Shown here: positions 16,997 to 45,747 of the stretch, in pieces
Position numbering within the stretch: the first letter of the stretch is position 1
How the letters are laid out: every line of letters begins with the position of its first letter
Source of the DNA: a virus
Lineage: Duplodnaviria > Caudoviricetes
Virus record (IMG/VR): IMGVR_UViG_3300037295_000263
Coordinates: 128,001-192,000 of that record
Direction: 5' to 3' (one strand)
DNA length: 64,000 nt
Notes under the pieces: generated by a model
What the model was told of the DNA's origin: nothing
What the model saw: only the letters and a program-made list of their open reading frames with translations
Database searches by the model: none
Made by a program: the position numbers and the translations under genes

Positions 16997-16998
16997 AG

Positions 16999-17400: not shown

Positions 17401-18393
17401 ATGATGACAACTAAATTTAAAAATATTCCGTTTCAAAGTATTGCGAAATTTGGACAGCGTACTATGCTGTCGCGCCCTTTATTCTCAACAAGTTGGATTT
17501 TGGGAAGGTTCTGCAACTATAAGTGTAGCTACTGCTGGCCTTATGCTCGCAGTGACAAAATAGATCACCAGTCATTGGAAACTTACACGCATACTATAGA
17601 CGAAATTAAACGGCAGGCTCGCCAAAATGGATTCACCGAGTTCCACTGGAGCTTTAGTGGAGGTGAGCCTACTGCTTACAAACAGTTAACAGAATTAATT
17701 AAACACTTAGACGATGGTGATGCAACACCGTATCAAAGCATTCACATGACAACCAATTTATCGCCAGGTGTGAAATGGTGGAAATCATGGGTTGAAACAA
17801 CAAGAGTACTGCAACGATGCAGCATCACTGCCAGCTTTCATGATGAGTTTGCCAAGGAACAAGAGTTTGGAGACAAGATCTTATACCTAATGAGTGAGGG
17901 GGTGCATGTCACAATCAATCAAGTAATGGTTCCGGAAAAGTTTAACGAACTGTATGAACGCTTAGCACGTTTTGCCTACCTCGGGATTAATGTCACCCTG
18001 AAACCTCAAAGTGATCCCACTGCCAGTCAAGTAGTATCCGGTTATACCGATAGCATGATTTCCGCCATGCGTACAGGATTCCCACAACACGCCAACGGTG
18101 AAGACACTTATCAGATAGCACTATACGATGCAAATGATACTGAATACTTGTTTGATCAAGCAGAACGATTTAATGCGTTTGGATTCAACAAGTTTACCAA
18201 TTGGACTTGCAATTCAGGGTATCAAAGTGTTATAATAAGAGGTAATGAAGTTAAACGTGGCTATAGTTGCCACGATCACCCGTTAGGCAATATATTAACA
18301 GGATTTGATCTGTTCAATGAGCCACAATCATGTATAACACCCAGTTGTGTTAGTTCAGCGGATTCAAAGATACCAAAATGCAAAATTATTTAA
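17401..18393 (+). CDS. Radical SAM protein with C-terminal Cys-rich (SPASM/twitch-like) domain
   Basis: CNYKCSYC, SGGEPT, C-terminal CNSG...SC...C...C. Confidence 0.9.
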   Translation: MMTTKFKNIPFQSIAKFGQRTMLSRPLFSTSWILGRFCNYKCSYCWPYARSDKIDHQSLETYTHTIDEIKRQARQNGFTEFHWSFSGGEPTAYKQLTELIKHLDDGDATPYQSIHMTTNLSPGVKWWKSWVETTRVLQRCSITASFHDEFAKEQEFGDKILYLMSEGVHVTINQVMVPEKFNELYERLARFAYLGINVTLKPQSDPTASQVVSGYTDSMISAMRTGFPQHANGEDTYQIALYDANDTEYLFDQAERFNAFGFNKFTNWTCNSGYQSVIIRGNEVKRGYSCHDHPLGNILTGFDLFNEPQSCITPSCVSSADSKIPKCKII

Positions 18394-19139
18394 TCTGGAA
18401 TACAATGTTAGATGACGTCAGGAAGAATAGATTTCTCCCTGTAGATTGCAAAATGTCTAAGATCTTTGCAGAATCAGACACTGAAGAGCTGTTTAATGCT
18501 AACTTAAAAACTCAACCCGCAGATTGGGAATATCGAACTAAACCAATTAATTATACCTATAACAAAGACTTCTACAGAACAGGTGAATTTAAAAACTTAG
18601 ATTGGGCAAATAGTATTGTGATATTCGGATGCAGTAATGTTTTTGGAGTTGGGCAAGACGAGTACGACACCGTGTCCAGCACAGTAGAACGACTGGTAGG
18701 AATGCCAGTTATCAATATGGGGGTAGGTGGGTCGAGTATTAATTTTTCATTGCATAACAGCATTATAATGAGTCGAGAGTACCCAACACCAAAGGCTGTA
18801 GTGCATCTCTGGACCGAAGAGTCTCGATGCGTATATTATTCTAAAAAGAAATTATTTAATCTAGGTAGTTGGAATAGGAGAGAACGATATGATTATTTTA
18901 ATGCGTGGACTGCTGACCCTTATAACTATAAGACTAATGCACTTTTTGCTAGTTTAATTAGCCAACAGCTATGGGAAGGAAAATGCAAGTATTATGAGGC
19001 CAGTTATTTTGAAGAAACCTCCAAGACTTTAAAGTGCGATAAACTTAAAAGTATTGATCTATCAAGAGATATTATACATTACGGTCCCAAGACAACATTG
19101 TATGCAGCAACAAAAATTGCTAATAATTTAAACTTATGA
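18378..19139 (+). CDS. SGNH-hydrolase-like protein
   Basis: IFGCSNVFG and INMGVGGSS blocks. Confidence 0.55.
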   Translation: MQNYLIWNTMLDDVRKNRFLPVDCKMSKIFAESDTEELFNANLKTQPADWEYRTKPINYTYNKDFYRTGEFKNLDWANSIVIFGCSNVFGVGQDEYDTVSSTVERLVGMPVINMGVGGSSINFSLHNSIIMSREYPTPKAVVHLWTEESRCVYYSKKKLFNLGSWNRRERYDYFNAWTADPYNYKTNALFASLISQQLWEGKCKYYEASYFEETSKTLKCDKLKSIDLSRDIIHYGPKTTLYAATKIANNLNL

Positions 19140-19726
19140 ACATAGATACAGATCACTTGCATTATTGGATGCAAGCAATACGTCAGAGCACAGATCCTAT
19201 GCGTACTATGGATGCGTTTTGGTCAGGACAAATTAAAAGCAAAGAATGGCTAATTAGTTGTTTAACACAATATGTAAACAAACCGGTGACTATAGATATA
19301 CACGGTGGATGGGTTGGCACTTTAGCAAGTTTATTATTTCAAAGCAGTCTTCCTATAAAACACATTAATAGCATCGACATAGATCCATGTGTGAATTCGA
19401 TTGCTATTAACATGAATAAACTAGAAGAAATAGAAGGAAGATTTCAAGCGTTTACAGCAGATATGTGCAACACTCATTCAGTTGCAGATATTATTATAAA
19501 TACTAGCTGCGAACATATTACCCAAGAACAATACAATACGTGGCTTAAGAATCAGCCAACCGATAGTATATTACTAGTACAAAGTAACAATTACGATATA
19601 CCTGAGCATATAAGAACAGCAAGTTCCTTAGATCATTTTGTTGAACAAAGCAACCTGGATGTATCATTAGCAGTAGAACTAACATTACCGTTATATAAAA
19701 GATTTATGATTATCGGAAAAAAATAG
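19136..19726 (+). CDS. Class I SAM-dependent methyltransferase
   Basis: IHGGWVG, IDID, ADM, NTSCEH. Confidence 0.75.
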   Translation: MNIDTDHLHYWMQAIRQSTDPMRTMDAFWSGQIKSKEWLISCLTQYVNKPVTIDIHGGWVGTLASLLFQSSLPIKHINSIDIDPCVNSIAINMNKLEEIEGRFQAFTADMCNTHSVADIIINTSCEHITQEQYNTWLKNQPTDSILLVQSNNYDIPEHIRTASSLDHFVEQSNLDVSLAVELTLPLYKRFMIIGKK

Positions 19727-19802
19727 CATATCTGTTTTGTTTATAGGTTAAATTTTCTTTGATAATTAAGTGTACAACATTACTTTTAAACTTAAAAATT
19801 AT

Positions 19803-20723
19803 ATGAAAATTTTAATAACAGGAACTTCAGGGTTCATCGGTTCGCATTTGTCAACGTTTCTGGCAGTGAACAATGCAGTACACTCGCTAACGAGCGATTT
19901 GCTAGACCATGCAGCAGTACAAGAAGAAGTAAAATCTATATCTCCCGATATCATTGTACACTTGGCAGCAAGAACAGAAGTAGAAAAAAGCTTTTACGAA
20001 CAAGTAACATTTAGCGAAATAAATTATGTAGGCACAGTCAATCTAATTGAAGCTGCTGCCAAAGTAAAAAATTTAAAAAACTTTGTATTCGCTAGTACTA
20101 TGGAAGTATACGGGTGGCAGCCAATTAGCGACGAAGTTCAGTCACATAGTATTCCACAGACATTTATTTCATTCGATGAAAATACTCAGCCTAATCCGAA
20201 TGCTCCGTATTCTGTAGCTAAGTATGCTTGTGAAAAATATTTACAGTATGCCCATAGATGCTTAGGACTCCCGTTTACAATTATACGTCAAACAAATGCA
20301 TACGGTCGCAGAGATAATGTATTTTTTGTAACTGAACAAATTATTACACAAATGCTAAATTGTCCTACTGAAATAAATCTAGGATACTCCGAACCTTATA
20401 GAAATTTTATTTTTATCACCGACTTATTAGCAGCATGGCAAGTAGTTGTTGGCAACCCCGCGAAAGTTAATGACGGCAAAATTTTTACCATCGGGCCTGA
20501 CAATCCTATCAAAATACGAGACTACGCTAATCTAATTGCTAAAAAGCTAAATTGGAATGGGCAAATTAATTGGGACACTAAACCGCATCGTCCAGGAGAA
20601 ATATTTTGGTTAAATAGCAATCATAACTTGATTACAGAGCTTACCGGGTGGAAACCTGAAGTTAGCTTAGATACCGGACTAGATTTAACTATCGACATTT
20701 GGAAACAAAAAATTAAAAAATGA
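19803..20723 (+). CDS. NAD-dependent nucleotide-sugar epimerase/dehydratase
   Basis: GTSGFIG, HLAA, STMEVYG, YSVAK, N.YG. Confidence 0.92.
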   Translation: MKILITGTSGFIGSHLSTFLAVNNAVHSLTSDLLDHAAVQEEVKSISPDIIVHLAARTEVEKSFYEQVTFSEINYVGTVNLIEAAAKVKNLKNFVFASTMEVYGWQPISDEVQSHSIPQTFISFDENTQPNPNAPYSVAKYACEKYLQYAHRCLGLPFTIIRQTNAYGRRDNVFFVTEQIITQMLNCPTEINLGYSEPYRNFIFITDLLAAWQVVVGNPAKVNDGKIFTIGPDNPIKIRDYANLIAKKLNWNGQINWDTKPHRPGEIFWLNSNHNLITELTGWKPEVSLDTGLDLTIDIWKQKIKK

Positions 20724-21403
20724 CTACTAAAAACTGGAAACCTTATCTCAAGTTAGGTGCTAACGGTTTTCCGTGCATGGCACAGCAGACGTATGAACCA
20801 CTAGTAAGCCCTGACGGAGATACATTTTGTAAAAATTATAACTTTCCAAATAACTATCAGTATTTAGAAACTAAAGATAGACCGTTATATACTCAAGAAG
20901 TAGTTGACTGGTTTTTCCAAAACGAAGTAAGATGGATTGAATATTTTAAAAACAAACCATACAGTCCTGAAATAATCGACATTGATTTCAAACGTAAAAA
21001 AATATTCTTAAAATGGTATAAAGAATCGTGCAACCAAGTAATGTTTTCCGGCAGAAGTTGGCCTACTGAATGGCTAGATAAAATAAAAAATATAATTCTA
21101 GACCAGTATGCTACAGGAGTGTATAAATTAACCATGTATCCACATTGTCACTATATCGACAGTCACGACAACATGCGAGCAATCGATTGGTACGGATGTG
21201 TGTTAGTGGCAAATCCGTACATAGAAGAAAAATACATGCAAGGGATTATTCACGAAACTGCACAATTTCGATTAGATGAAACAGGATCTGCTATCGATAA
21301 TAAACTAAATTTAGAGATTATGTTTAAAAGAAGTTTAGGACAACATGTTATGTGGGGAGAACAAAACATGAGTTATATATACAAGGAATTATTCGATGCC
21401 TAA
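20720..21403 (+). CDS. Protein-kinase-like fold protein with degenerate motifs
   Basis: FQNEV...PEIIDID...KLTMYP...AIDWY; paralog of 32349-33047. Confidence 0.45.
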   Translation: MTTKNWKPYLKLGANGFPCMAQQTYEPLVSPDGDTFCKNYNFPNNYQYLETKDRPLYTQEVVDWFFQNEVRWIEYFKNKPYSPEIIDIDFKRKKIFLKWYKESCNQVMFSGRSWPTEWLDKIKNIILDQYATGVYKLTMYPHCHYIDSHDNMRAIDWYGCVLVANPYIEEKYMQGIIHETAQFRLDETGSAIDNKLNLEIMFKRSLGQHVMWGEQNMSYIYKELFDA

Positions 21404-23106: not shown

Positions 23107-23110
23107 CATT

Positions 23111-23713
23111 ATGATGGTTGAAAAAGAAATATTAAATATGCCCCGCATTTCTGTTTTTACTAACGTACTAAGCGACGAAGAATCTGACTACATTGTCGAC
23201 AAATATTCTAAAATAGGATTGAATCCAGTAGCAGGTATGGAATCGAGACAGCAAACGTATGGGCAAATTACAGAAGAAGTAGAACAACGTAGCATTAGTT
23301 GGGACACTTCAATAGAAGATAAAGATTTATTTAAAAATAAGTTGTTGCAAGCAGTAGGAATTCCAGTAAGTCATATCGAAGCTGGTGATATTTACAAATA
23401 CGATCCAGGGCAGGAATTCGGTCCACACCATGATTTTCCATACGTTCCGAAAAAAGTTCCTTATTATCAAAATGGTGGTGACAGAGCTGCTACTGCAATA
23501 TTTTGGCTTAATGACGGGTATACTGGAGGGGAGCTAATTTTTCCATTATTAGATATTCGAATAACTCCAGTCAAGAATGGATTAGTGTATTTTGAATACG
23601 ATTACGATGACGAAATATTAAACATGTCGACATGGCATAAAGCACTGAGTGTTAGGCATAATCCAAAATGGATTGCAGCATTTTTCTGTGCCAATGGCCC
23701 TCGTGTAGAGTAA
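23111..23713 (+). CDS. Prolyl-4-hydroxylase-like 2OG-Fe(II) oxygenase
   Basis: PHHD, RAATAIFWLND...GGELIFP, WHKA...KW. Confidence 0.85.
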   Translation: MMVEKEILNMPRISVFTNVLSDEESDYIVDKYSKIGLNPVAGMESRQQTYGQITEEVEQRSISWDTSIEDKDLFKNKLLQAVGIPVSHIEAGDIYKYDPGQEFGPHHDFPYVPKKVPYYQNGGDRAATAIFWLNDGYTGGELIFPLLDIRITPVKNGLVYFEYDYDDEILNMSTWHKALSVRHNPKWIAAFFCANGPRVE

Positions 23714-23714
23714 T

Positions 23715-24734
23715 ATGTATCCTAGTAAATCTTCAGTAATACATATTGAGCTTACTGACAAGTGTCAAGCTAGTTGTCCTATGTGTGCTAGAAATATCAA
23801 CGGAGGTGCCGAAAGAAACTTTGTTGGCAACAATGAAATTACACTTTCCCAGTTTAAAGCATGGTTTCCTGCAGAATTTTTATCTAACGTAGTTAATTTT
23901 TATGCTTGCGGAAATTACGGAGACCCTATTATTGCTAAAGACTGTTTGGAAATTTTTGAATATGTCAGAAGTGTTAACAACGAATGCCGATTATCTATCC
24001 ATACAAACGGTAGTGCTAGGTCTACAGAATGGTGGAAGAAATTAGCAAACGTGTTAGGCGATCACCATATGGTAACATTTGGAATCGATGGATTCTCTGA
24101 TAGTCATAAATTATATCGCAGAGGAACAGATTGGCATAAAATTATTGAAAATGCATGTGCATTTATTAGTGTCGGAGGTAAAGCAGAAATAGATTGTTTA
24201 GTTTTCAAGCATAACGAAAACGAAGTAGACGAATTCAAAAGACAAATGCTCGAGAAGGGATTCTTTAAAGTAAATTTAAAATATACAAGAAGGTTCTATG
24301 ACATGCTAGCATTTCCTGTTCAAGATAAATCTGGTAACTTTGAATACAATCTCGAGCCGGCAAGTTTTAAACAGAATGTACAATTTATACCTCTTGAAAA
24401 AATTAGTAAAGATATTAAAATATGGGAACGTACTGTTGAGGCTTCGGAAATATCTCCTAAATGCATCAGTAATAACGAAATGTACATCGATGCTCGCGGC
24501 AACGTGTTTCCTTGTTGCTGGATCGGTTCTGATTTAATAGAGGAACCGATTGTAGAAAAAATGCCAATTCAAAAATTGAGAAATTTAGTAGTAGAAAATT
24601 CTAAAGATAAATTTTCAAAATATGCAATGGGTAATCTTAATGAAACAGAAATTTCAAAAATTATTTGGTATAACTTCGACAGCTTTATAAAAAATGAAAA
24701 ACCTTGGACTTGTGTGAAAAATTGTAATGGATAA
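23715..24734 (+). CDS. Radical SAM/SPASM-like protein
   Basis: CQASCPMC, GNYGDP, C-terminal C...YIDARGNVFPCC...C..C. Confidence 0.9.
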   Translation: MYPSKSSVIHIELTDKCQASCPMCARNINGGAERNFVGNNEITLSQFKAWFPAEFLSNVVNFYACGNYGDPIIAKDCLEIFEYVRSVNNECRLSIHTNGSARSTEWWKKLANVLGDHHMVTFGIDGFSDSHKLYRRGTDWHKIIENACAFISVGGKAEIDCLVFKHNENEVDEFKRQMLEKGFFKVNLKYTRRFYDMLAFPVQDKSGNFEYNLEPASFKQNVQFIPLEKISKDIKIWERTVEASEISPKCISNNEMYIDARGNVFPCCWIGSDLIEEPIVEKMPIQKLRNLVVENSKDKFSKYAMGNLNETEISKIIWYNFDSFIKNEKPWTCVKNCNG

Positions 24735-30011: not shown

Positions 30012-30051
30012 GATAATATTTACACAGGATCGACAGTGCATAAATATTTTC

Positions 30052-33047: not shown

Positions 33048-33072
33048 GAAATATTTAATTAATAAATACATT

Positions 33073-36838: not shown

Positions 36839-37571
36839 ATTGTTTTTTGTAGCTGTTAGCTATAAGAGTTGCGAATTGAGAAATCTGTGTACCGTATCCA
36901 AAGCTATGTCCAATAACGTGTACACGCGGAGTATTAGAGAAATTTAATACCGAATGAGTATGCCTAATATTTATTATAAACATCTTACCTTGTTTAAACG
37001 GAACTATTCCTTTGCCCTCTAAAACCATAAAACATTCTGCTGGATGAATAACTGCAATATTAACAGGTACTCCGAATTGTAATGCATCGAAGTTGTCCTC
37101 CCCCGGAAGTCTACCAGGCATGTCGCTATGTGGATGAATTGCACTATCAGGCATTAATTCCATAAACCTTATTCGCCTATAGCTATCTGAAGGAAATTTA
37201 CTTTGCCAAAAATCTTTAATTACAGGAGTAGTTACTGACAAGCTAGTCCAGTTATAGGGAACTTGCGATTCTTCTGTATAACCGTATCTATTCCACGAAC
37301 CCGTTTTATCAATCGATATGCCATGTATACAACAACTATTCCACCCTTGATTATCTCGATGTTCCACAAAGTGCATTTTAGCATTGTTAGATTCCTGCTG
37401 CCATTGTGGCAAATCTATAGGAATATCTAACTCAATCCATCCGAAGTCGGAGTAGTTTAGTAACCAATTAGCAATTTCTGTATCAGTAGTTAGATTAGAA
37501 GGTATAGGGTCCAGAGTCCAGTTACAAGATTTATTTTTATTGAAAAAATCTAAAGCAGAGTTTGTTATCAT
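36819..37571 (-). CDS. AspH-like 2OG-Fe(II) oxygenase
   Basis: RIRFMEL...HPHSD...HTHSVLN....RVH. Confidence 0.8.
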   Translation of the reverse strand: MITNSALDFFNKNKSCNWTLDPIPSNLTTDTEIANWLLNYSDFGWIELDIPIDLPQWQQESNNAKMHFVEHRDNQGWNSCCIHGISIDKTGSWNRYGYTEESQVPYNWTSLSVTTPVIKDFWQSKFPSDSYRRIRFMELMPDSAIHPHSDMPGRLPGEDNFDALQFGVPVNIAVIHPAECFMVLEGKGIVPFKQGKMFIINIRHTHSVLNFSNTPRVHVIGHSFGYGTQISQFATLIANSYKKQYEHYRI

Positions 37572-38560: not shown

Positions 38561-38599
38561 AAGTATAATTATGCAAAAACACATCTGATAAGTAGTATT

Positions 38600-39475
38600 A
38601 TGGATAGAGCATATACCGACTTCGTGTCTTTTTACATTACTAATGTCTGCGGACTTAGTTGCAAAGGATGTGCTAGTTTTAATAACTACGCAGTAAAGCA
38701 CCATTATAAATGGGAAGTTGCTAGAGAAAAAACTTATAAATGGGGAACTCTATTATCAACCAGGCAAATTAGTATAATCGGCGGCGAGCCATTGCTAAAT
38801 CCAGAAATTGATCTTTGGGTTGCTGGCATCAGAGATGCATTCCGACACGTTGACGATATACGAGTATACACAGGGCTTACCGGAAAGAGTTTACTAAGAT
38901 ACAAGGATCAAATTAGAAAATGGTTAAGTCAAAATGTTATAATACAAATTAGTGTACACGATCCTTCTTGGTGGGAAGAATCTATTGAAACTGCCTGTGA
39001 GATTTTAGAAGGCTTGGATTTTGAAATTCAAAAAACAATAGACCAGGGAACTTTCCCATTAAAAGCTGTCAATTTTATATCCCCCGAAGGAGTAGTACTT
39101 TTCTCTATGTTAGAACAATGGGCATTTTTCCCCAGCGCAATACAAAAAGTGCAAAATGGTACTATATATTTCCATAACAACGATCCTGAAAAATCTCATG
39201 CAGCGTGTCATTGTAAAGATTGCCATTATCTAGTAGATGGGGATATGTATAAGTGTGTCATTACTGGAACTGCAAAAATGGTACTGGATCAATTGCCCAT
39301 AGATCAAAGGTCATCGGAATTACTTAAACAGGTTAAAGGATTAGATCCATTTATCGACGGGTGGAACCCAAATATTAAAGAAGTAATTCCGCAGTGTTCG
39401 CTATGTACTAGCGATACGCAAACACGGGTAATGGCATTTCCTATTCCTGTTAAAAAAGAAAAAATACCAAAATGA
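38600..39475 (+). CDS. Radical SAM protein with C-terminal Cys-rich domain
   Basis: CGLSCKGC, GGEP, CHCKDC...YKC...CSLC. Confidence 0.85.
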   Translation: MDRAYTDFVSFYITNVCGLSCKGCASFNNYAVKHHYKWEVAREKTYKWGTLLSTRQISIIGGEPLLNPEIDLWVAGIRDAFRHVDDIRVYTGLTGKSLLRYKDQIRKWLSQNVIIQISVHDPSWWEESIETACEILEGLDFEIQKTIDQGTFPLKAVNFISPEGVVLFSMLEQWAFFPSAIQKVQNGTIYFHNNDPEKSHAACHCKDCHYLVDGDMYKCVITGTAKMVLDQLPIDQRSSELLKQVKGLDPFIDGWNPNIKEVIPQCSLCTSDTQTRVMAFPIPVKKEKIPK

Positions 39476-40398
39476 CTATTAGATATCCTTACGATAAAAG
39501 GCATTTGAATTTTGGAAATTCGTCTGCTATAAAAGATCCTGCAGTATTGTCGTTATTATCTAATTTAAATTTAAATTTAGTAGATATTTTACAAAACGAA
39601 CGGATTGTTAAAGAATTTATAAACGATTACAAAACGTGGATTGAATCTTCTAAATTAAATAAAATAAAAGGCCTTGCAGATTTTAACTATGCATGCTACT
39701 CTAATGGAACTACTGAAGCATTTGATAAGTTTTATTTAAAAAATAACACTAGACGATTTAGATGCTTTCACGGCGAATATATGTATCATCAACTAATGTG
39801 GAGGAATTGTTATCCTTCTTGGGAATTTATTAGTGACTGCGATCTAGATATCAACGATGCAGTTGTAATTAGTTTGCCTTTTGCCGATACAGGAAATCAA
39901 CATTCTGAATATAAAAAATTAATTGCTACTTGCGAAAAACTTAATGTTCCAGTTTTAGTCGACTGTGCATATTTAGGAATTTGCCAAGGTATTGAATTTG
40001 ACTTTTCTAGTACTTGTATAACTGATGTGACTTTTAGCTTATCAAAAACTTTTCCTATATCGCATGCAAGGATAGGACTAAGGCTCACACGTAGCGACAA
40101 TGACGATTCTTTATTTGTTGTAAATAAGGGCGACTATGTTAATCGTCTAGGTGCATATATAGGCTCAACACTAATTAAGAATTTTTCTTCCGATTATATT
40201 GTTACCGAATATCGAGACATTCAAACAAAATTTTGTAACCACCTTAAGGTAGTGCCAAGTAATACTGTGCTATTTGGCATTGGCAATTTATTGTGGAATG
40301 AATATAATCGAGGTAGAGGATCGAATCGTTTAAGTTTCCATAACTACTATCATTTACAGTCTGATAAATTTTATGAAGAAAATTCTCCCCGTGCCTAA
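39472..40398 (+). CDS. PLP-dependent fold-type I aminotransferase-like protein
   Basis: VLVDCAY and SLSKTF.....RIG. Confidence 0.75.
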   Translation: MTIRYPYDKRHLNFGNSSAIKDPAVLSLLSNLNLNLVDILQNERIVKEFINDYKTWIESSKLNKIKGLADFNYACYSNGTTEAFDKFYLKNNTRRFRCFHGEYMYHQLMWRNCYPSWEFISDCDLDINDAVVISLPFADTGNQHSEYKKLIATCEKLNVPVLVDCAYLGICQGIEFDFSSTCITDVTFSLSKTFPISHARIGLRLTRSDNDDSLFVVNKGDYVNRLGAYIGSTLIKNFSSDYIVTEYRDIQTKFCNHLKVVPSNTVLFGIGNLLWNEYNRGRGSNRLSFHNYYHLQSDKFYEENSPRA

Positions 40399-41569
40399 CG
40401 CTAAAATATTAAATTTTGAATTATTGTACTTAAATGAGAATAACTACTCAGATCAAAAAATTGCTGATGTTAATTTTAGATTAGTATCTGCTGATATTAA
40501 AAATGCAGCAAAGGAAGGTTGCGATACAATATTTGGATTGTTATTGCTAGATGGATTTTTATATAAAAACAATACATTGTTTTTTGATTGGTTACGATCT
40601 ATAGAAAAATTATGCTATCAAGAAAATATACATAATCTTATATTAGTTCCAGGGATGTGTGAAGATTTTAAAAATGTATTAGAACAACAGGAAATAACTG
40701 CCAATATAGAATTTTTTGATTTTACACACAGAATGGTGTACAATAGTTATTGTAATAAACTTGATACATTGCCTCGCTGGAATAAAGATGCAACAGATTT
40801 TCTTTTTCTGGGCGGAATTCCTTCTAGGCCGAATAGGATCAGGTTACTATCAAAATTTTATCAAAAGACAGGATTAAAAAATTGCAAGTGGAGTTTTTTT
40901 AAACCGGTGTCCGATGAAGATAAATCCATTTGTAGATTGCTAATGAAAGATTTTTCCAATGAAGAATATCGAGATTTCGTTGATAGTTGCGAAAACTCTG
41001 TCGATGACTTATATATCGAAACGCAAGAGTATTCACGGCTGACCGGCCCTGATATTATAAAAACTAATATATACAGTAAACCTTGGCTTAAAGACCCGGT
41101 GTGGATAGATACTTCAATATTTGAAAATACTAAATTCAGTATCGTGTCAGAGGGCAACGCTTATCCTCCTGCAACTAGTTATAAATTCCTTACAGAAAAA
41201 ACATGGAGAGCTGTTGCAAATCGGCATCCTTTTATCATAGCAGGTCATGCAGATCAAATATATTATGCACATCGGCGTGGCTTATGCACCTTTGAAAATT
41301 ATATGGACTCGGATTTTTATAATTCCCCTGAAGAAGAAAAGTTTGATGCAATTGTACGCAATGCAACGGAATGGCTCGATAATTTAAACTTCCATGAAGT
41401 CAACAACGATGTAGAAAAGAATTATCAAAGATTTTTAGAAATTGCTCAAGAGCAAAATTATTGGCTACAAACGTTAAACGAAGAATATCAAGTACCACTT
41501 GTAGAAATTAATAAATGGTTTAACCAGCTAGGATTTTCTCATTTAATAAGAGTGCCCGATGGATTCTAA
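40373..41569 (+). CDS. Glycosyltransferase-like protein (GT10/GT-B-like C-terminal LTEK motif)
   Basis: KFSIVSE...FLTEKTW...HPFII; paralog of 62207-63397. Confidence 0.45.
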   Translation: MKKILPVPNAKILNFELLYLNENNYSDQKIADVNFRLVSADIKNAAKEGCDTIFGLLLLDGFLYKNNTLFFDWLRSIEKLCYQENIHNLILVPGMCEDFKNVLEQQEITANIEFFDFTHRMVYNSYCNKLDTLPRWNKDATDFLFLGGIPSRPNRIRLLSKFYQKTGLKNCKWSFFKPVSDEDKSICRLLMKDFSNEEYRDFVDSCENSVDDLYIETQEYSRLTGPDIIKTNIYSKPWLKDPVWIDTSIFENTKFSIVSEGNAYPPATSYKFLTEKTWRAVANRHPFIIAGHADQIYYAHRRGLCTFENYMDSDFYNSPEEEKFDAIVRNATEWLDNLNFHEVNNDVEKNYQRFLEIAQEQNYWLQTLNEEYQVPLVEINKWFNQLGFSHLIRVPDGF

Positions 41570-42482
41570 ATGTGCAGCATTTTGGCATCATACTAATATT
41601 CGAAGCGACAATCGAATCTTTCCATGTTGCCGATTTAAAGAACCTGTTGCTACATTCCATGGGACTGTAGATAATATTTTGCTACTACCCGAGTACGTGC
41701 AGTTAAGGAAACAAAGCTCTGAAGGCGAATATATATCTAGTTGCCAAAAATGCTACAAAGAAGAATCGCAAGGCAAACAAAGCCTGCGTCAAGTGTTTAA
41801 CAAAGAATACAATACAGATACTGTTAGTTTAGAATATTTAGAAATTGGATTTGATAATATATGCAATTTAACTTGCGATGGTTGTTGGGAGGAATTTAGT
41901 TCGGAATGGGGCAAAAAACTTATGGTAGTAAAATCAAAAATTGTTAAGTCTACTGCCGAATTTACACAAATTTCTGATACTATTTCCAAAGTACTATTCT
42001 TAGGTGGCGAGCCTTTAATGACTACTCGACACCAAAAGTTTTTAGAATCATTTAACGATTTATCAAAATTAACGGTAATATACAATACTAACGGAACATT
42101 TTTGCTAGATGACAAAACTATAAATATTCTTAATCAGTGTAAGTCTGCAGAATTTATTGTAAGTATAGACGGATATGCTGACCTTAATTCCCGAGTACGA
42201 CCAGGTAGTAATTGGAAGGATATCTTATTGTTAATAGATCAAATTAAGTCTCTACAATTTAAATTATCAGTACATTCAGTAATACATTTAAATAACTGGA
42301 AAGGATTAAAAGAGTTATCTAAATTTGTTAAATCGTTAGATGTAAACTGGACAGTGAATGTGCTTACGTATCCACATCGTCTTGATATTATTAATATAGA
42401 AAATAAACAAGAATTTATTAGTTTAATCGAAAGTATAGATGTTCCAACTAAAGAGTATATTATTGCACATGTTAAAATTTAA
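41559..42482 (+). CDS. Radical SAM protein with N-terminal twitch-like domain
   Basis: C...PCC...CQKC, CNLTCDGC, GGEP, YNTNG. Confidence 0.9.
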   Translation: MDSKCAAFWHHTNIRSDNRIFPCCRFKEPVATFHGTVDNILLLPEYVQLRKQSSEGEYISSCQKCYKEESQGKQSLRQVFNKEYNTDTVSLEYLEIGFDNICNLTCDGCWEEFSSEWGKKLMVVKSKIVKSTAEFTQISDTISKVLFLGGEPLMTTRHQKFLESFNDLSKLTVIYNTNGTFLLDDKTINILNQCKSAEFIVSIDGYADLNSRVRPGSNWKDILLLIDQIKSLQFKLSVHSVIHLNNWKGLKELSKFVKSLDVNWTVNVLTYPHRLDIINIENKQEFISLIESIDVPTKEYIIAHVKI

Positions 42483-43068
42483 AAACTACGTCGATCATCA
42501 AATTATAAATGATGCATTGTTTACTATCAAAAGCAGCGTCAAGGCCTTCGATTGGCGAGAACTTGGAAACTTGTTAAGGTTGGAAGAAAAAGATTTTTCT
42601 TCATTTTTATTTTCTTGGTTTTCTTTAAAAACCGATGACTCCGGATCATATTTCGAATCTAGCGGTAGCTTTCCTGAACTTGACCAAACTAACTGTTCGT
42701 TGCCTAGTTCTGAATTATTGTCGATAGATTTACAACTATTAGATGCTCCGCAATTTAAAGAATTAAAAGAACTAGTAAACAATATTAAAGGCGTAGATTA
42801 CGCAGGATTTATGTTTATGAGTCCTGGATCACATATACCTGCACACAACGACGGAGAAGTTAACAGTATAATAATAACATTAAACATAGAAGAAAATAAT
42901 GCAGATGCGTTTCTTAGAATTAATAAAGATCATTATTATTTTAGTAAATCAGAAATTTTTACATTCGATGCATCTATTCCACACGAAGCTAAGAATCTTT
43001 CAAAAACTGACTGGATTATGTTCGTGTTAAGAATAGAAAAAGAATATTTCACAAAGGAAGAATATTGA
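42469..43068 (+). CDS. AspH-like 2OG-Fe(II) oxygenase
   Basis: PAHND...FDASIPHEAKN. Confidence 0.8.
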   Translation: MLKFKNYVDHQIINDALFTIKSSVKAFDWRELGNLLRLEEKDFSSFLFSWFSLKTDDSGSYFESSGSFPELDQTNCSLPSSELLSIDLQLLDAPQFKELKELVNNIKGVDYAGFMFMSPGSHIPAHNDGEVNSIIITLNIEENNADAFLRINKDHYYFSKSEIFTFDASIPHEAKNLSKTDWIMFVLRIEKEYFTKEEY

Positions 43069-44120
43069 AAGTATTAACAAACAACCACTGGGACCCGTTA
43101 CAAGAAATTATTGTAGGGATTGCTGACTATGCAAGAGTTCCTACAGTAGACAGAAGCACAATGAGCATGAGTTATACAAATCATCCTATAGACTTAATCA
43201 AACCATTAGAGGGAGAGTATCCCAGATGGCTGATAGACGAAGCCAACGAAGACTTGCAAGGGTTAGTGGATGTGCTATCAAAAGCAGGAGTCATAGTGCA
43301 TAGACCTGCTGCTATAGACCATAGCGTAGAATTTAGTACTCCGGATTGGAAAACGACTGGATGGTATACATGGTGTCCGCGTGATTTATTATTACCTTTA
43401 AATAATTTAGTAATAGAGACTCCGAGTGCATGTCGCGCAAGACACTACGAAACTCGAGCATATAAACATATCATGTTAGAAGCAATTAACGATGGAGTCG
43501 AATGGATTGCAGCACCTAAACCTACGTTACTAGACAATAGCTATCAATTTGAAGATATTGACGGTAAGCCTAGCTTACTAAATTTAGAGCCTATTTTTGA
43601 TGCACCTAACTGTGTAAGAATGGGTAAAGATATATTGTTTCAAATTTCTAATACAGGAAATCACTGGGGATTAAAATGGCTACAAAATACATTAACCCCC
43701 CGGGGATACAATATACATCCTGCTGAACACATTTACAGCTACGGGCATTTTGATAGTACTATAGTGCCTTTACGTCCAGGGTTAGTGTTGCTGAACAGCA
43801 GCAGAGTAACTAAGGAAAATTGTCCTAAGATTTTTGAAAAATGGGATAAAATATGGTTTGACGACTGCATTTCTCAAGGAAGTAAAATTCCAGGAGGAGT
43901 AGCACCATGTAGTCCGTATATAGGTATGAATATATTAAGCATCGATCATAATACTGTTGTTGTAGATGATACACAGATTCCACTGATGCGAGAATTGGAA
44001 AAATATAATATCACTAGTGTTCCTATTAGATTTAGACACGCAATGACTCTAAGTGGTGGTATACATTGCACAACTTTGGATCTTCGTAGAAAAGGGTCGC
44101 TTGAAGATTATTTTTCATGA
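43065..44120 (+). CDS. Amidinotransferase (glycine/inosamine-phosphate amidinotransferase family)
   Basis: WDPLQEIIVG, CPRD, FDAP, HFDST, GGIHCTTLD. Confidence 0.92.
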   Translation: MKVLTNNHWDPLQEIIVGIADYARVPTVDRSTMSMSYTNHPIDLIKPLEGEYPRWLIDEANEDLQGLVDVLSKAGVIVHRPAAIDHSVEFSTPDWKTTGWYTWCPRDLLLPLNNLVIETPSACRARHYETRAYKHIMLEAINDGVEWIAAPKPTLLDNSYQFEDIDGKPSLLNLEPIFDAPNCVRMGKDILFQISNTGNHWGLKWLQNTLTPRGYNIHPAEHIYSYGHFDSTIVPLRPGLVLLNSSRVTKENCPKIFEKWDKIWFDDCISQGSKIPGGVAPCSPYIGMNILSIDHNTVVVDDTQIPLMRELEKYNITSVPIRFRHAMTLSGGIHCTTLDLRRKGSLEDYFS

Positions 44121-44614
44121 TACGATTTTTCGGAACTATCGAAGATTTTTGGTCAGCCGATTTAAAAAGCTATCAATTTGTAAATAGATATTCTGCAGGA
44201 CAACGATCTTCTTTTCATAAAAACTATTCAAATACAAACAATGATCTACTGCAAGGATTTGATAGCGAGCTACCAGTAAAAGGAAGATTATTCCTCCAGC
44301 AACTAAAGTTAACAATTGGAACAGTATCCTGGACATGCATTGAACCAGGTCAATCTATTCCAGTGCATACTGATGCATTTTATAAATTTAGAATAGAAAA
44401 CGATATCGACATCAGCCAGTGTATAAGATATTTAATATTTTTACAAGATTGGAGTTTTGGGCATGTAGTAGAATTTGAAGAGCTGTCACTTACTAAGTGG
44501 AAATGTGGCGACGTCTGGGTGTTTGATCACAATTCTAAACATTTTGCATCAAATGCAAGCAATACCGATTTTATAACATGTCAAGTGAATACAATAGTAA
44601 ATACTGGTACTTAA
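44117..44614 (+). CDS. 2OG-Fe(II) oxygenase
   Basis: PVHTD...KHFASN. Confidence 0.7.
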   Translation: MIRFFGTIEDFWSADLKSYQFVNRYSAGQRSSFHKNYSNTNNDLLQGFDSELPVKGRLFLQQLKLTIGTVSWTCIEPGQSIPVHTDAFYKFRIENDIDISQCIRYLIFLQDWSFGHVVEFEELSLTKWKCGDVWVFDHNSKHFASNASNTDFITCQVNTIVNTGT

Positions 44615-44625
44615 TAGGAATTATC

Positions 44626-45747
44626 ATGTCATTAGACGCTCTTCAGATTCACTGGGACAATCAAACACTAAATTATGATTTGGAAAAATATAACTGGCCG
44701 GCATGGGCACTATCGGTAATACAAGAAGTTGCACCGCAAGTAACAGAATTAGAAACATTGCATAATGTATTGACCCCTGTTGAAATTGTAAAAGTTAGTC
44801 AACATGTACAGAATGCCTGTAGTAGACTTGACTTTATGAAAAAGTTTGATGACTTTGTGCAAGGATTCGTTCCTGAAAGAATACAAAATAAAAGATATTT
44901 AATTCAGCGTCAAGGAACATTAAGAGTTGTTATTCCTAATCAGTCTAGCGTTGGCAGACGATTAGCGTTTCATCAAGGCATTTTCGTCGGTAATGGGCGA
45001 GGCTGCAGAACTATATGGACTCCATTTACTCAAGCTAAAGGCACCAACACTATGTGGATGATGGACCTTGATATTTCAAGAGAAATATCCAAGCGTGTGC
45101 TATCAGAAAAATGGAGTTTAGAAAAGTTCGAAGATGAATGTTTAAAATATGCATGGCCAGTTACGCTACAGCCAGGGCAAAGTCATTTATTTTTTCAAGA
45201 ACATATTCACGGCAATGTAGATAATAAAGAAAATTATACCCGAGTTAGTATGGATATGCGTATACTAATCGAAGGCGAAGAGTGGGGTAGAAGACTTCCT
45301 GGGGGATTTATGAGATTACCGGGAGATTATCAAGTTACAGAACAGTTAGACTACACCGGTAAAAAGTTTATTACATACGCAGGTTGGAATAGTCAGTTCA
45401 GTAAAGGAATCCCGCTGCCAATGCAACGTGCGATAATCGAACCTTATTGCCAGTCTAATAAAATTAATTATTCATCTTACGAGTTTGAAAATGAACACAT
45501 GGATTGGCAGCCTGGACTGGAACATTATATTAAAGAAAAACCTGACGGAATAGTATTGTGCAGCATGTACAGCTTAACTGACGACGCTGAAAGATGCTTA
45601 GAGTTGTTAAATCTCGCACTAGACAGTGGCGTTGAGCTACATTTTGCAAATGAGCTGTGTTCATTAAGAACAAAAGACGATTTAGAAAGAATTGTAACTT
45701 ATATAAACTTTGCGGTACCTAAAAAAGGTCCGCAAGTTTGGGAATAG
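44626..45747 (+). CDS. Two-domain protein: PhyH-like 2OG-Fe(II) domain with HxG motif plus C-terminal alpha/beta domain
   Basis: AFHQG...IWTPF...HIHGN...RVSMDMR; the C-terminal domain resembles the sporadic carbohydrate cluster protein family as I recall it. Confidence 0.7.
   Translation: MSLDALQIHWDNQTLNYDLEKYNWPAWALSVIQEVAPQVTELETLHNVLTPVEIVKVSQHVQNACSRLDFMKKFDDFVQGFVPERIQNKRYLIQRQGTLRVVIPNQSSVGRRLAFHQGIFVGNGRGCRTIWTPFTQAKGTNTMWMMDLDISREISKRVLSEKWSLEKFEDECLKYAWPVTLQPGQSHLFFQEHIHGNVDNKENYTRVSMDMRILIEGEEWGRRLPGGFMRLPGDYQVTEQLDYTGKKFITYAGWNSQFSKGIPLPMQRAIIEPYCQSNKINYSSYEFENEHMDWQPGLEHYIKEKPDGIVLCSMYSLTDDAERCLELLNLALDSGVELHFANELCSLRTKDDLERIVTYINFAVPKKGPQVWE

Follow-up and report, generated by a model that had tools for sequence, protein, structure and literature searches.

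What does a phage make with an island of ten radical SAM genes (one of them truncated), about ten iron oxygenases and two predicted sugar transferases? We addressed this question in a window of 64,000 nt, the whole stretch of DNA analysed, to which all positions refer; it is part of a 217-kb IMG/VR contig that, by its gene content, derives from an uncultured T4-like water phage, in line with the phage origin given in a preliminary description of the locus.

Layout and conservation of the island

The dense tailoring-enzyme island that had been proposed for positions 17401-45747 is real: 35 ORFs (Table 1) are packed into ~28 kb, mostly overlapping and with barely any intergenic DNA. The strand alternates over the island, giving 7 gene blocks, and about ten pairs of same-strand neighbours show the 4-nt overlaps (ATGA type) described before. 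In contrast, the remark that TAAATA motifs stand at operon heads is without support, since the window contains 93 copies of TAAATA compared to ~137 expected from composition, i.e. not above chance, and the two occurrences of TATAAATA in the window never lie ahead of a gene start. These motifs were also the sole stated basis for calling the island late-expressed.

The island genes are functional, as judged from strongly purifying selection and from the thousands of homologues of g11 and g33 (70-90% identity). We obtained pN values of about 0.12-0.21 and pS values of about 0.73-0.88, the latter saturated; where dN/dS could be computed (dS being saturated), it is ≤0.1, not near 1 as expected under the relaxed selection that would have spoken against the preliminary description. 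The gene content of the island varies among close relatives. A divergent homologue of the fibre-like gene at its right border (g36; 26-42% identity) adjoins the island in related phages too. The island is less unusual than it had appeared, because earlier papers note radical-SAM-rich modules in T4-like phages (PMC2853527, PMC5332604, PMC7029224), and islands of this type turned up in at least seven other genomes in our analysis; it is one more example of a recognised class.

Table 1. Genes of the island and associated genes outside it (positions in the window).
Gene	Position	Strand	Assignment	Evidence
	4039..4419	-	NifU/IscU-like Fe-S cluster scaffold	PHROG 8429 E 8e-40
g01	17401..18393	+	Radical SAM, C-terminal Cys-rich part; core gene	Pfam Radical_SAM E 2e-11; CNYKCSYC
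g02	18378..19139	+	Variable gene	Weak profile link to g24 (hhalign 63%)
g03	19136..19726	+	Class I SAM-dependent methyltransferase; core gene	Atlas structure matches, TM 0.72-0.86
g04	19770..20723	+	NDP-sugar epimerase/dehydratase (extended SDR)	Pfam Epimerase E 6e-39; GDP_Man_Dehyd E 1e-38
g05	20720..21403	+	Paralogue of g20	hhalign g05-g20 99.7%
g06, g07, g08	21396-21977, 21890/21980-22561, 22558-23106	+	Three tandem cupin paralogues	Mutual BLASTP
g09	23111..23713	+	2OG-Fe(II) oxygenase, prolyl-4-hydroxylase type	Pfam 2OG-FeII_Oxy_3 E 2e-10
g10	23715..24734	+	Radical SAM + C-terminal SPASM; core gene	Pfam Radical_SAM, SPASM
g11	24727..26139	+	N_Twi_rSAM (N-terminal twitch + radical SAM core)	NF033640 403 bits
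g12	26136..27128	+	Radical SAM, g01/g13 family	Pfam E 7e-12; BLASTP to g13, g01
g13	27112..27999	-	Radical SAM, g01/g12 family; core gene	Pfam E 8e-12
g14	27992..29308	-	N_Twi_rSAM; core gene	NF033640 314 bits
g15	29241..30053	-	PP-loop ATPase + C-terminal Cys cluster (QueC-like layout)	Invariant SGGADS
g16	30052..30720	+	Asp/Arg-hydroxylase-like cupin; core gene	Atlas structural neighbours
g17, g18	30713..31815	+	Short Rossmann (SDR-like) paralogues, mutual identity 42%	Weak adh_short, Epimerase N-terminal matches
g19, g20	31802..33071	-	g19, faint GNAT/FeeM hint; g20, paralogue of g05	Profile searches
g21	33037..33888	+	Conserved, invariant H-R-D...H residues	Alignment
g22	33828..34436	+	Truncated N-terminal half of N_Twi_rSAM gene	Alignment to homologues
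g23, g24	34441..35603	+	g23, Asp_Arg_Hydrox-like cupin; g24, no assignment	g23: Pfam E 2.5e-4
g25	35600..36838	-	Predicted GT-A fold (~residues 9-225) + class I methyltransferase fold (~220-390)	AF2 pLDDT 90
g26	36819..37571	-	Asp/Asn beta-hydroxylase-family oxygenase	Pfam Asp_Arg_Hydrox E 2e-9
g27	37568..38560	-	Radical SAM, called as 330 aa	Pfam Fer4_12, Radical_SAM
g28	38600..39475	+	Radical SAM	Fer4_12 E 2e-5; CGLSCKGC
g29	39472..40398	+	PLP aminotransferase-like (weak)	Aminotran_1_2 E 0.004; NCBIfam transaminase 8e-6
g30	40373..41569	+	Predicted GT-B fold, glycosyltransferase-like	AF2 pLDDT 84
g31	41559..42482	+	Short N_Twi_rSAM	NF033640 189 bits
g32	42469..43068	+	Asp_Arg_Hydrox oxygenase	Pfam E 1.5e-10
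g33	43065..44120	+	Amidinotransferase/DDAH (pentein) superfamily	Source names; PF02274 in relatives
g34	44117..44614	+	Cupin (Asp_Arg_Hydrox-like)	Pfam E 0.0013; hhalign to g23
g35	44626..45747	+	Highly conserved; PhyH-like 2OG enzyme as lead	Invariant H-Q-G motif in alignment
g36	45752..47023	-	Fibre-like protein (Mtd_N), right border of island	Pfam Mtd_N 27.6 bits
	59073-60428	-	Outlying N_Twi_rSAM	NF033640 288 bits
	60440-61573	-	Partner of outlying N_Twi_rSAM: 377 aa, PP-loop-like N-terminus	Marginal QueC N-terminal match

Radical SAM enzymes, oxygenases and accompanying genes

Genes were called radical SAM if a CX3CX2C motif was accompanied by a Pfam Radical_SAM or Fer4_12 match. All ten claimed for the island and the eleventh at 59 kb were found; however, g22 is a truncated half-gene, matching residues 1-165 of 383-394-aa homologues from related phages. 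Since it retains only the N-terminal ~165 residues of an enzyme of ~385 aa, nine island radical SAMs look intact. The two architectures noted before are evident: an N-terminal twitch/SPASM-like domain precedes the core in g11, g14, g31, the outlying gene and the g22 fragment, and the core comes first, with a Cys-rich part at the C-terminus, in g01, g10 (SPASM), g12, g13, g27 and g28. The four full-length genes of the former type all score above the NF033640 (N_Twi_rSAM) cut-off of 170 bits; by this profile they can be assigned, for the first time here, to a family that is named but uncharacterised, and close to which we found no solved structure. The best conserved island gene is g11, with 3938 homologues (top ones 75-86% identical). 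Among 80 related loci, g01 is present in 78 (median identity 66%), g13 in 79 and the methyltransferase gene g03 in 76; g01 also has weak NCBIfam matches to STM4011, viperin and MoaA.

Nine of the eleven oxygenases claimed are supported, six of them by Pfam or Atlas (starting at 23111, 29911/30052, 34441, 36819, 42439 and 44117) and three (21396, 21890 and 22558) via profile kinship to the one at 34441, g06, g07 and g08 aligning with g23 at 97-99% (hhalign); g35 stays a PhyH-like lead, PhyH occurring in 17% of the members of its Atlas neighbour cluster. A similar kinship links g23 and g34 (hhalign 99.5%). The Atlas entry of g16 begins at residue 48 and has Asp_Arg_Hydrox clusters as structural neighbours. 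The oxygenase gene g26 is translationally coupled to g25, and genes resembling these two adjoin each other in L105, a Bdellovibrionales MAG, and share one island in L087.

Further enzymes had been named in the preliminary description, of which the methyltransferase (g03), the epimerase (g04), the QueC-like PP-loop enzyme (g15) and the amidinotransferase (g33) are borne out. For g15, whose true start probably lies near 29935, there are weak PP-loop/TilS matches and no QueC Pfam match, and its Cys cluster reads C232...C253-x2-C256-x2-C259; g33 is 35% and 30% identical to the 'inosamine amidinotransferase' of phages S-SCSM2R and CP220, respectively. The two SDRs (g17 and g18) and the PLP enzyme (g29) do have matches, but weak ones, and the GNAT-like gene amounts to a hint (FeeM, E 0.2). 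A PLP enzyme like g29 co-occurs with N_Twi_rSAM in Bdellovibrionota loci. Family searches gave no match for g02, nor did PDB and Pfam searches for g21; the profile of g05 yields a Ser/Thr kinase in the PDB as a lead (E 0.0016).

Predicted glycosyltransferases and sugar-gene neighbourhoods

The two genes previously described as GT-like, g25 and g30, had been unannotated and, according to their structure models, fold as glycosyltransferases, which is new here. By predicted fold, the nearest likeness of g25 is the capsid-glycosylating A64R of chlorovirus PBCV-1 (GT-A domain, VIA Z 10.3), followed by the LH3 GT domain (about 10); its C-domain resembles EgtD/NodS (Z 9.5), and AFDB gives a 'Glycosyltransferase 2-like' match (E 1e-15). 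Every top Foldseek match of g30 is a GT-B enzyme (VIA Z 11.6 over 275 residues); among its neighbours are T4 AGT/BGT and GT4 enzymes. Sequence identity of both proteins to their structural matches is 4-13%.

We also discovered that orthologues of island genes have sugar genes as neighbours in five independent settings. In Bdellovibrio sp. HCB2-146, orthologues of g10, g03, g01, g11 and g14 (40, 34, 50, 45 and 24% identity), the g03 orthologue adjoining those of g01 and g10, are interleaved with four GT2-family genes, an acetyltransferase and a faint Glyco_transf_7C match, next to the gene for a 1959-aa Peptidase_S74 fibre protein. Two N_Twi_rSAM genes of Poseidonocella are surrounded by FdtA, an NDP-hexose 2,3-dehydratase and an EryCIII-type GT; in Hahella, a faintly methyltransferase-like gene is followed by N_Twi_rSAM and then by an EryCIII-like GT. 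On a marine MAG contig, this core is accompanied by a carbamoyltransferase, a GFO_IDH_MocA-radical SAM fusion, a nucleotide-sugar transferase and an NDP-sugar epimerase. Cultured phages share with the island a second module (cupin, PLP enzyme, amidinotransferase, radical SAM, GT): Synechococcus phage S-SCSM2R carries a g34-like oxygenase, a g27-like radical SAM and a g33-like amidinotransferase amid five annotated glycosyltransferases, and in Campylobacter phage CP220 five radical SAMs accompany an amidinotransferase, together with two genes of the nucleotide-diphospho-sugar-transferase fold.

A proposed sugar pathway and its alternatives

The earlier reading, modification of a macromolecule or synthesis of a small molecule, fits in general, and the GT-A/GT-B fold proteins, the NDP-sugar epimerase and the sugar and glycosyltransferase neighbours of the orthologues now narrow it towards sugar chemistry. 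With moderate confidence, we propose that the island is a phage-borne cytoplasmic pathway that builds, tailors and transfers an unusual sugar. In the order that we infer, a nucleotide-activated sugar would be made or drawn from the host, with g04 and g17/g18 acting here. Amination and amidination by g29, g33 and g15, the PP-loop ATPase, would come next, then methyl transfer by g03 and the C-domain of g25, then hydroxylation, for which about nine cupin/2OG enzymes are at hand; nine radical SAM enzymes, including four N_Twi_rSAM, would rewrite the sugar at unactivated carbons, sugars being suggested as their substrates by gene neighbourhood, and the phage's own g25 and g30 would transfer the product. 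The coupled pair g26 and g25 might first create a protein hydroxyl and then glycosylate it. Since membrane proteins are absent from the island, we expect a cytoplasmic acceptor; our conjecture for it, the least certain part of the scheme, is that it is most likely a virion protein, perhaps of the fibre encoded next door or of the capsid. The fibre-like gene at the border, the NifU/IscU scaffold and the lack of membrane proteins, flippases, polymerases and transporters among the island proteins were also counted for the sugar pathway; counted against it were the rarity of g04 (12 of 80 related loci, ~76% identity), the lack of a sugar-activating nucleotidyltransferase in the island and the lack of a Pfam GT2 match in the 217-kb contig.

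The sugar-gene associations would fit equally well if unusual nucleotide sugars (or a modified glycan) entered the LPS, capsule or S-layer machinery of the host, altering the cell surface and blocking superinfection by other phages. Such host-surface remodelling has been proposed in print for analogous regions, the glycosyltransferase-rich host-recognition clusters of pelagimyophages and the polysaccharide clusters of cyanophages (PMC7029224; PMC7824862, section 3.4.10); moreover, its variation between close relatives makes the island resemble an O-antigen locus, and the last gene of the CP220 module encodes a PAP2 phosphatase-family membrane protein. We nevertheless regard it as rather unlikely: with neither a membrane protein, an initiating phosphoglycosyltransferase, a flippase, a polymerase nor an exporter in the island, it would depend on host machinery to act at all, the short lytic cycle suggested by the T4-like gene content would leave little time for surface turnover, and it is with a fibre gene, not with lysis or early genes, that the island is linked. 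It is quite unlikely that the radical SAM/SPASM-twitch enzymes, the Asp/Asn hydroxylases, the methyltransferase and the amidino/deiminase-type enzyme directly cross-link, epimerise, hydroxylate and methylate side chains of a phage protein (the fibre, for instance) or of a short ribosomally made peptide without any sugar, as in RiPP pathways such as proteusins. Peptide maturation is another typical role of SPASM/twitch radical SAMs and Asp/Asn hydroxylases, hydroxylation by Asp_Arg_Hydrox enzymes is directed at protein residues, protein arginine deiminases belong to the pentein superfamily, and a Nif11 leader-type domain occurs in 14-18% of the members of bacterial clusters structurally near g16. 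The weak NCBIfam matches of the radical SAMs are mostly RiPP maturases, but their scores of 20-50 bits are far under the cut-offs of 300-650; there is no small conserved precursor-like ORF at the left edge of the island and hardly any intergenic room elsewhere, Pfam, NCBIfam and PHROG scans gave no RRE, leader peptidase or exporter, and the orthologues neighbour glycosyltransferase and deoxysugar genes.

The enzyme density also resembles a biosynthetic gene cluster, as for a diffusible aminoglycoside-, nucleoside- or aminocyclitol-like metabolite (e.g. a toxin, antibiotic or signal of use to the infected cell or the phage). This would agree with the resemblance of g33 to inosamine amidinotransferases of aminocyclitol pathways, the N_Twi_rSAM genes within a polyketide-deoxysugar cluster of Poseidonocella and the sugar/amino-acid-derived metabolite that Iyer et al. 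proposed for a cyanophage cluster (PMC7824862). Yet scaffold synthase, exporter, resistance gene and regulator are all absent from the island, which in phages and Bdellovibrio goes together with fibre genes, and a lytic phage would have no clear gain from a metabolite, so we deem this very unlikely. Very unlikely as well, finally, is DNA hypermodification, in which some of the island genes would serve to decorate the bases of phage DNA, by extending a 7-deazaguanine system or glycosylating a modified base, even though g15 combines a QueC-like PP-loop with a Cys cluster, a canonical QueC was not found on the contig, T4 alpha- and beta-glucosyltransferase are among the top structural neighbours of g30, and CP220, in which every G is replaced by 7-amido-7-deazaguanine (10.1101/2023.04.13.536721), has a related radical SAM/amidinotransferase module. 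The QueC model gives g15 no score, and the thymidylate synthase adjoining the island is paired with DHFR, as in ordinary dTMP synthesis, and hence gives no sign of hydroxymethyl-pyrimidines to glycosylate; the island content differs among close relatives, unlike that of DNA-modification modules, and the same core resides amid GT2 genes in Bdellovibrionota chromosomes.

Outside the island, the marginal QueC N-terminal match in the partner of the outlying N_Twi_rSAM spans 61151-61228 (189151-189228 of the IMG/VR record). The NifU/IscU-like scaffold, a homologue of which adjoins the island in the relative L173, likely supplies cofactor to the radical SAM enzymes.

Gene content, paralogy and conservation of the island

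The dense enzyme island noticed in the preliminary description is borne out by the ORF listing: 35 genes (g01-g35, numbered left to right) fill the region in seven alternating-strand blocks, and many of them overlap by 4 or 8 nt (for positions see the table). Its count of ten radical SAM genes plus one at 59 kb stands in part, as CX3CX2C with a Pfam Radical_SAM or Fer4_12 match is found in ten and the eleventh lies where it had been placed, but g22 is truncated. Pfam model PF04055 exceeds its gathering score nine times in the window, i.e. in eight island genes and in the outlier at 59 kb (g38); radical SAM gene g28 lies under the Radical_SAM cut-off and over that of Fer4_12. For the eleven oxygenases claimed, nine cupin/2OG genes are supported (by Pfam for g09, g26 and g32 and by the Atlas for g16, among others), while g35 offers only a PhyH-like lead. 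This last protein, one of the best conserved of the island (81% mean column identity), has F-H-Q-G as an invariant stretch and some PhyH proteins among its Atlas neighbours; a replacement of HxD by HxG at the iron site would be the signature of 2OG-dependent halogenases. We further assigned g03 as a class I methyltransferase, g04 as an NDP-sugar epimerase/dehydratase, g33 as a pentein-superfamily amidinotransferase and g15 as a PP-loop ATPase with an invariant SGGADS, a C-terminal C...CxxCxxC cluster and a QueC-like layout. The QueC model PF06508 itself does not match g15; its sole marginal match (E 0.07) falls in the 377-aa gene next to g38. Permissive Pfam scans of g02, g05-g08, g19-g21, g24 and g35, which covered the 'SGNH-like' and 'GNAT-like' candidates, returned only noise at E > 0.01, and a cluster look-up of ten unannotated proteins gave nameless singletons.

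Positions of the features discussed in the text, and paralogue families of the island
Feature	Position	Strand	Remarks
Baseplate/fibre protein	2-3676		Structural gene
NifU/IscU-like Fe-S cluster assembly protein	4039-4419	-	PHROG 8429, E 8e-40; listed together with 3713-4039 (-)
NMO/FabK-like flavoprotein	5195-6160	-	
Bax inhibitor-1/YccA-family membrane protein beside thymidylate synthase and DHFR-like gene	14610-16604	-	Pfam E 1.5e-55 (Bax inhibitor-1/YccA); E 6e-106 (thymidylate synthase)
Very basic Ala/Lys-rich ORF	16999-17196	-	65 aa
tRNA-like 3' fragment	17243-17275	-	GGTTCGAGTCCTACCAGCCA
Enzyme island, g01-g35	17401-45747		
g22	33828-34436	+	Truncated radical SAM gene
g35	44626-45747	+	PhyH-like lead
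FabF-type beta-ketoacyl synthase	50854-52050	+	Pfam E 5e-42
tRNA gene array	55179-57702	-	10 genes: Cys, Trp, Glu, Asn, Gly, Ser, Thr, Ala, Pro, Asp
Second small operon	59073-63975	-	
g38	59073-60428		N_Twi_rSAM
377-aa gene	60440-61573		PP-loop-like N-terminus
Bdellovibrionota island, Bdellovibrio sp. HCB2-146 (G001)	C1:1858482-1894914		These two islands: 30-36 kb, 6 to 14 N_Twi_rSAM paralogues
Bdellovibrionota island, second genome (G002)	C1:745513-774880		See preceding line
N-terminal-twitch radical SAMs			g11, g14, g31, g22 fragment, g38 (59 kb)
Second radical SAM group			g01, g12, g13
Third radical SAM pair			g27, g28
Cupins			g06, g07, g08, g23, g34; more loosely g16, g26
Further paralogue families			g05/g20; g17/g18

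All-against-all BLAST and hhalign comparisons show that the paralogue families are old (20-40% identity). The truncated gene g22 aligns only with the first ~165 residues of its 383-394-aa homologues in related phages, where full-length copies (~385 aa) occupy the same place; it is therefore a truncated N_Twi_rSAM remnant and gives direct evidence that genes decay and turn over within the island.

Relatives of the island genes are widespread. The N_Twi_rSAM gene g11 has 3938 homologues in the databases and the amidinotransferase gene g33 has 1313, the nearest being 70-90% identical, and a g11 relative is encoded in 336 viral contigs. From synteny maps of 80 loci around g11 and 71 around g33 we defined a conserved core (g01, g03, g10, g11, g12, g13, g14, g15 and g16) and a second conserved module consisting of the g34 cupin, the g29 PLP enzyme, the g33 amidinotransferase, a radical SAM of the g27/28 type, g30 and g31, which is retained even where the identity of g33 drops to ~55%. 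Outside the core and this module, presence and order of the genes vary among relatives, and a divergent fibre-like gene (g36, with an Mtd_N domain) stands at the island border here and in several of them. The preliminary description had named relaxed selection as the finding that would speak against its reading. Instead, compared with orthologues at least 70% identical, pN is low (0.12-0.21) relative to a saturated pS (0.73-0.88), with dN/dS <=0.1 where computable, and thus the genes are under strong purifying selection. Given how common these genes are in aquatic T4-like phages and how strongly they are conserved, they must be important for infection, with adsorption, the evasion of defences or grazers, and particle stability as possible roles.

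The TAAATA motifs noted earlier at the operon heads did not hold up, with 93 occurrences against ~137 expected. As for the T4 late consensus TATAAATA, it is present just twice, neither time before a gene, and is not enriched; counts in the promoter and terminator consensus scans were likewise at or below shuffle expectation. No RNA runs are listed for a 4.6-kb stretch or for g11 alone.

The N_Twi_rSAM family and its relatives in Bdellovibrionota

With membership of N_Twi_rSAM (NCBIfam NF033640) defined by whole-protein scores over 170 bits, the curated cut-off, four proteins belong to the family, namely g11 (402.7 bits), g14 (314.2), g38 (288.0) and g31 (188.8), whereas the remaining radical SAMs reach 25-40 bits and are non-members. 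An N-terminal Cys-rich twitch/SPASM-like domain is present, with Pfam SPASM at residues ~26-109 and Radical_SAM starting from ~140-160; in the alignment, invariant C31, C49, C50, C106 and C109 precede C163, C167 and C170. We found no characterised member of NF033640 in the literature, and nothing relevant that links the twitch with nucleotide sugars or Bdellovibrio fibres with radical SAM. A profile search of PDB sequences with N_Twi_rSAM recovered generic radical SAM cores only, and a look-up of the N_Twi_rSAM gene of the related locus L105 returned no gene on record with exactly that product.

In a scan of one genome per species, the relatives of N_Twi_rSAM are found mainly in Bdellovibrionota. 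NF033640 occurs in 14 of the 81 Bdellovibrionota genomes of an even sample, with at most 11 copies each, compared with none of 14 control genomes of model organisms. In one Bdellovibrionia MAG, ~20 copies exceed the cut-off; a stretch of 30 kb contains fourteen of these along with Asp_Arg_Hydrox genes and a relative of g25. These bacterial islands have in common with the phage a core of four to five genes (24-50% identity to g01, g03, g10, g11 and g14), as well as Asp_Arg_Hydrox genes and genes related to g25, g29 and g33; unlike the phage island, they sit on the chromosome of a predatory bacterium, and the one Bdellovibrio genome examined has clear GT2 genes. In that genome, Bdellovibrio sp. 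HCB2-146, orthologues of g10, g03, g01, g11 and g14 (40, 34, 50, 45 and 24% identity, respectively) are interspersed with four GT2-family genes, a faint Glyco_transf_7C match and an acetyltransferase, and the island adjoins a protein of 1959 residues whose Peptidase_S74 domain is the self-cleaving chaperone found in phage-type fibres. That Bdellovibrio-type predators have these genes too suggests a shared requirement among agents attacking Gram-negative cells.

Outside this phylum the settings differ in detail. Poseidonocella has two N_Twi_rSAM copies among FdtA, an NDP-hexose 2,3-dehydratase, B12-radical SAMs, an EryCIII-type glycosyltransferase and a polyketide synthase; in Hahella one copy is flanked by a faintly methyltransferase-like gene on one side and an EryCIII-like glycosyltransferase on the other, and the single copy of Beijerinckia stands alone. 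On a marine MAG contig, which may itself be viral, the same core is accompanied by a carbamoyltransferase, a fusion of GFO_IDH_MocA with radical SAM, a nucleotide-sugar transferase and an NDP-sugar epimerase. At 59 kb, N_Twi_rSAM is paired with a PP-loop ATPase, as it is in g14 and g15 and in two Bdellovibrionota loci (L086 and L111). The small operon to which the 59-kb pair belongs also encodes two unknown proteins (212 and 396 aa) and a fragment of a TctC/Bug-family periplasmic receptor (Pfam E 2e-26).

Proposed glycosyl transfer and its possible acceptor

Sugar activation, tailoring and glycosyl transfer form the common denominator of the orthologue neighbourhoods, which leads us to interpret the island as a pathway for making and transferring one or more heavily modified sugars, the transfer being carried out by its own GT-A (g25) and GT-B (g30) enzymes. 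Both are putative glycosyltransferases, assigned by fold at <15% identity on models predicted from alignments of phage homologues. The N-domain of g25 adopts a GT-A fold (model pLDDT 90), its nearest structure being PBCV-1 A64R (Z 10.3, rmsd 3.9 A, 166 residues), with further matches to the LH3 GT domain (Z ~10), STIV A197 (9.9) and Mimivirus R699 (9.2). Its C-domain folds like a class I methyltransferase (Z ~9.5 to EgtD/NodS); full-length A064R likewise joins GT domains to a methyltransferase domain. As regards the DXD motif of GT-A enzymes, an invariant D108 (H-x-L-D) closes the fourth model strand of g25 and no canonical DXD is present, as judged from the alignment and the model. For g30, two Rossmann domains make up a GT-B fold (pLDDT 84), and 49 of the 50 top Foldseek matches are GT-B enzymes or GT-B-like proteins; VIA Z is 11.6-9.5 over 255-284 residues (11.6 over 275), with T4 alpha-/beta-glucosyltransferase tied with many GT4 enzymes at the top. 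At the sequence level, Pfam GT2 has no match in the whole contig, a peptide-pattern search found no g30 relatives in viral contigs, tblastn gave no match for g25 and g35 in cultured phages, and PDB sequence profile searches with g25, g30, g35, g21 and g15 yielded nothing significant.

A hydropathy scan found no credible transmembrane segment in any island protein (three weak ones are a PP-loop strand or spurious N-terminal extensions), and hydropathy and Pfam together revealed no initiating transferase, flippase, polymerase or exporter of a Wzx/Wzy- or ABC-dependent polysaccharide locus in the island. With all proteins soluble and these components missing, one would expect a cytoplasmic acceptor or, alternatively, products that are passed to the machinery of the host. 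The second option corresponds to host-surface remodelling, the published guess for similar regions (PMC7029224, PMC7824862), which is plausible if the host machinery performs the membrane steps. For the first option, the most likely acceptor would be a virion protein. We infer this from the constant presence of a fibre gene next to the island, in phages as in one Bdellovibrio genome, from the fact that the nearest structure of g25 is A64R, which glycosylates the major capsid protein of PBCV-1, and from the translational coupling of g25 with g26, a member of the Asp/Asn-hydroxylase family, which recalls the hydroxylate-then-glycosylate order of LH3/COLGALT1.

Other products are conceivable for such a set of enzymes. 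Hypermodification of the phage DNA is suggested by g15, whose layout is QueC-like, and by the resemblance of the g30 fold to the T4 glucosyltransferases, but the variable content of the island, the ordinary ThyA-DHFR pair that adjoins it and the homologous islands in bacteria all argue against it. Direct peptide chemistry of the RiPP kind would suit the enzyme classes, yet it does not fit the neighbourhoods, and the island radical SAMs score far under the cut-offs of all RiPP maturase models. The left edge of the island showed no ORF resembling a precursor gene; an ORF at 16985-17281 (+) was rejected as an upstream precursor gene, the real gene there being the 65-aa basic protein on the opposite strand. 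A free metabolite would need a scaffold synthase and an exporter, and the island has neither.

If the product of the preferred pathway is a virion glycan made by radical chemistry, it would represent a new class of phage surface decoration and provide a first function for the large N_Twi_rSAM family, with its thousands of environmental sequences. A more far-reaching version, which we consider rather improbable, is that phages and predatory Bdellovibrionota have an undescribed glycan chemistry in common: paralogous N_Twi_rSAMs would edit sugars at unactivated carbons, the products would decorate the attack fibres of both predators, the hydroxylase-glycosyltransferase pair might first create the attachment site on the fibre, and the diversity of paralogues would amount to a combinatorial code that varies fibre surface chemistry. 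Acting on one scaffold, nine radical SAMs and about nine oxygenases would hold the promise of new reactions for enzymology.

Known phage systems and genomic setting

Multi-radical-SAM modules in T4-like phages have already been reported, and the island is a further, well-populated member of a recognised kind; its interest is its chemistry and not a first sighting, and its value would lie in being one more well-annotated example, with explicit if model-based glycosyltransferase assignments. The Campylobacter phages CP220 and CPt10 carry 11-12 radical SAMs, called 'highly unusual', and interchangeable modules that each include a putative amidinotransferase; the authors' guess was that they bring a metabolic advantage when oxygen is low (Timms et al. 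2010, PMC2853527). The CP220 module lies just after the baseplate genes and comprises five radical SAMs, an amidinotransferase, two genes of the nucleotide-diphospho-sugar-transferase fold and a PAP2 phosphatase. CP220 resembles our phage in being T4-like and in combining several radical SAMs with an amidinotransferase (30% identical to g33), but similarity at the N_Twi_rSAM level was not detected, only partial matches of 25-29% to g10, g13 and g28 are found, and no cupin/2OG swarm is annotated in CP220/CPt10. In Synechococcus phage S-SCSM2R, genes resembling g34, g27 and g33 are strung together with five annotated glycosyltransferase genes and one gene of the AHBA-synthase type.

Radical SAM cassettes and glycosyltransferases have also been described in the host-recognition cluster (HRC) of pelagimyophages and cyanomyophages, which is defined by its position between VrlC and the neck gene gp14 and for which host O-antigen modification was proposed (Zaragoza-Solas et al. 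2020, PMC7029224), and a T4-like marine genome contains 12 radical SAM genes together with Fe-S assembly genes (Nishimura et al. 2017, PMC5332604). Like the HRC, the island is a variable region among structural genes, with content shuffled around a conserved core and a fibre-like gene at its right border, a comparison that rests on gene content and on neighbouring structural genes. Asp/Asn beta-hydroxylase is a core gene there, and a phage IscU-type scaffold accompanies many radical SAMs. In contrast to those phages, whose papers deal with gene content only, the island lacks a Pfam-recognisable glycosyltransferase, and its share of radical SAM and cupin genes is far higher. Iyer et al. [quoted passage not shown] These share with the island the jumbo T4-like phage background, 2OG dioxygenases, cupins and methyltransferases (plus a halogenase there), but they are a third of its size and include carbamoyltransferases and HAD phosphatases, of which the island has none, and the term radical SAM is absent from PMC7824862. 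Chlorovirus PBCV-1 A64R (PDB 2p6w and related entries), Mimivirus R699 and the mycobacteriophage systems (virion glycosylation: Freeman et al. 2023, as cited in PMC12619734) provide virus-encoded soluble cytoplasmic glycosyltransferases that decorate virion proteins, although sequence identity is only 6-9% and those systems contain no radical SAM enzymes. We found no report in the literature of a glycan on any T4-like aquatic phage virion.

On the source contig (IMG/VR; 216.7 kb, ~59% complete according to CheckV), of which the window covers bases 128001-192000, the island region is flanked by T4-type baseplate/fibre, endonuclease and clamp-loader-like proteins. The sole sequencing run that contains DNA of the island is labelled as a salt-lake metagenome, which is probably the source sample, and a search of 50,697 phage records found no nucleotide similarity to cultured phages for the island or its left flank. 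The NifU/IscU-like protein near the left end of the window likely supplies cofactor to the island enzymes: a homologue directly adjoins the radical SAM island in a relative (L173), and a scaffold of this type encoded in the window fits the need to load many Fe-S enzymes fast.

Some features of the surroundings are recorded here in their own right. At the left border of the island, a short stretch resembles a tRNA T-arm with the 3' acceptor strand; neither ARAGORN nor Rfam makes a call at ~17243-17275, and the fragment is possibly the remnant of a tRNA that marks a site of recombination. The neighbouring basic ORF, between the DHFR-side genes and the island, has a histone H1/Hc1-like composition, and further left a Bax inhibitor-1/YccA-family membrane protein lies beside thymidylate synthase. 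An array of tRNA genes is found to the right of the island, and the FabF-type synthase and the NMO/FabK-like flavoprotein represent auxiliary genes of the fatty-acid-synthesis type in a phage.
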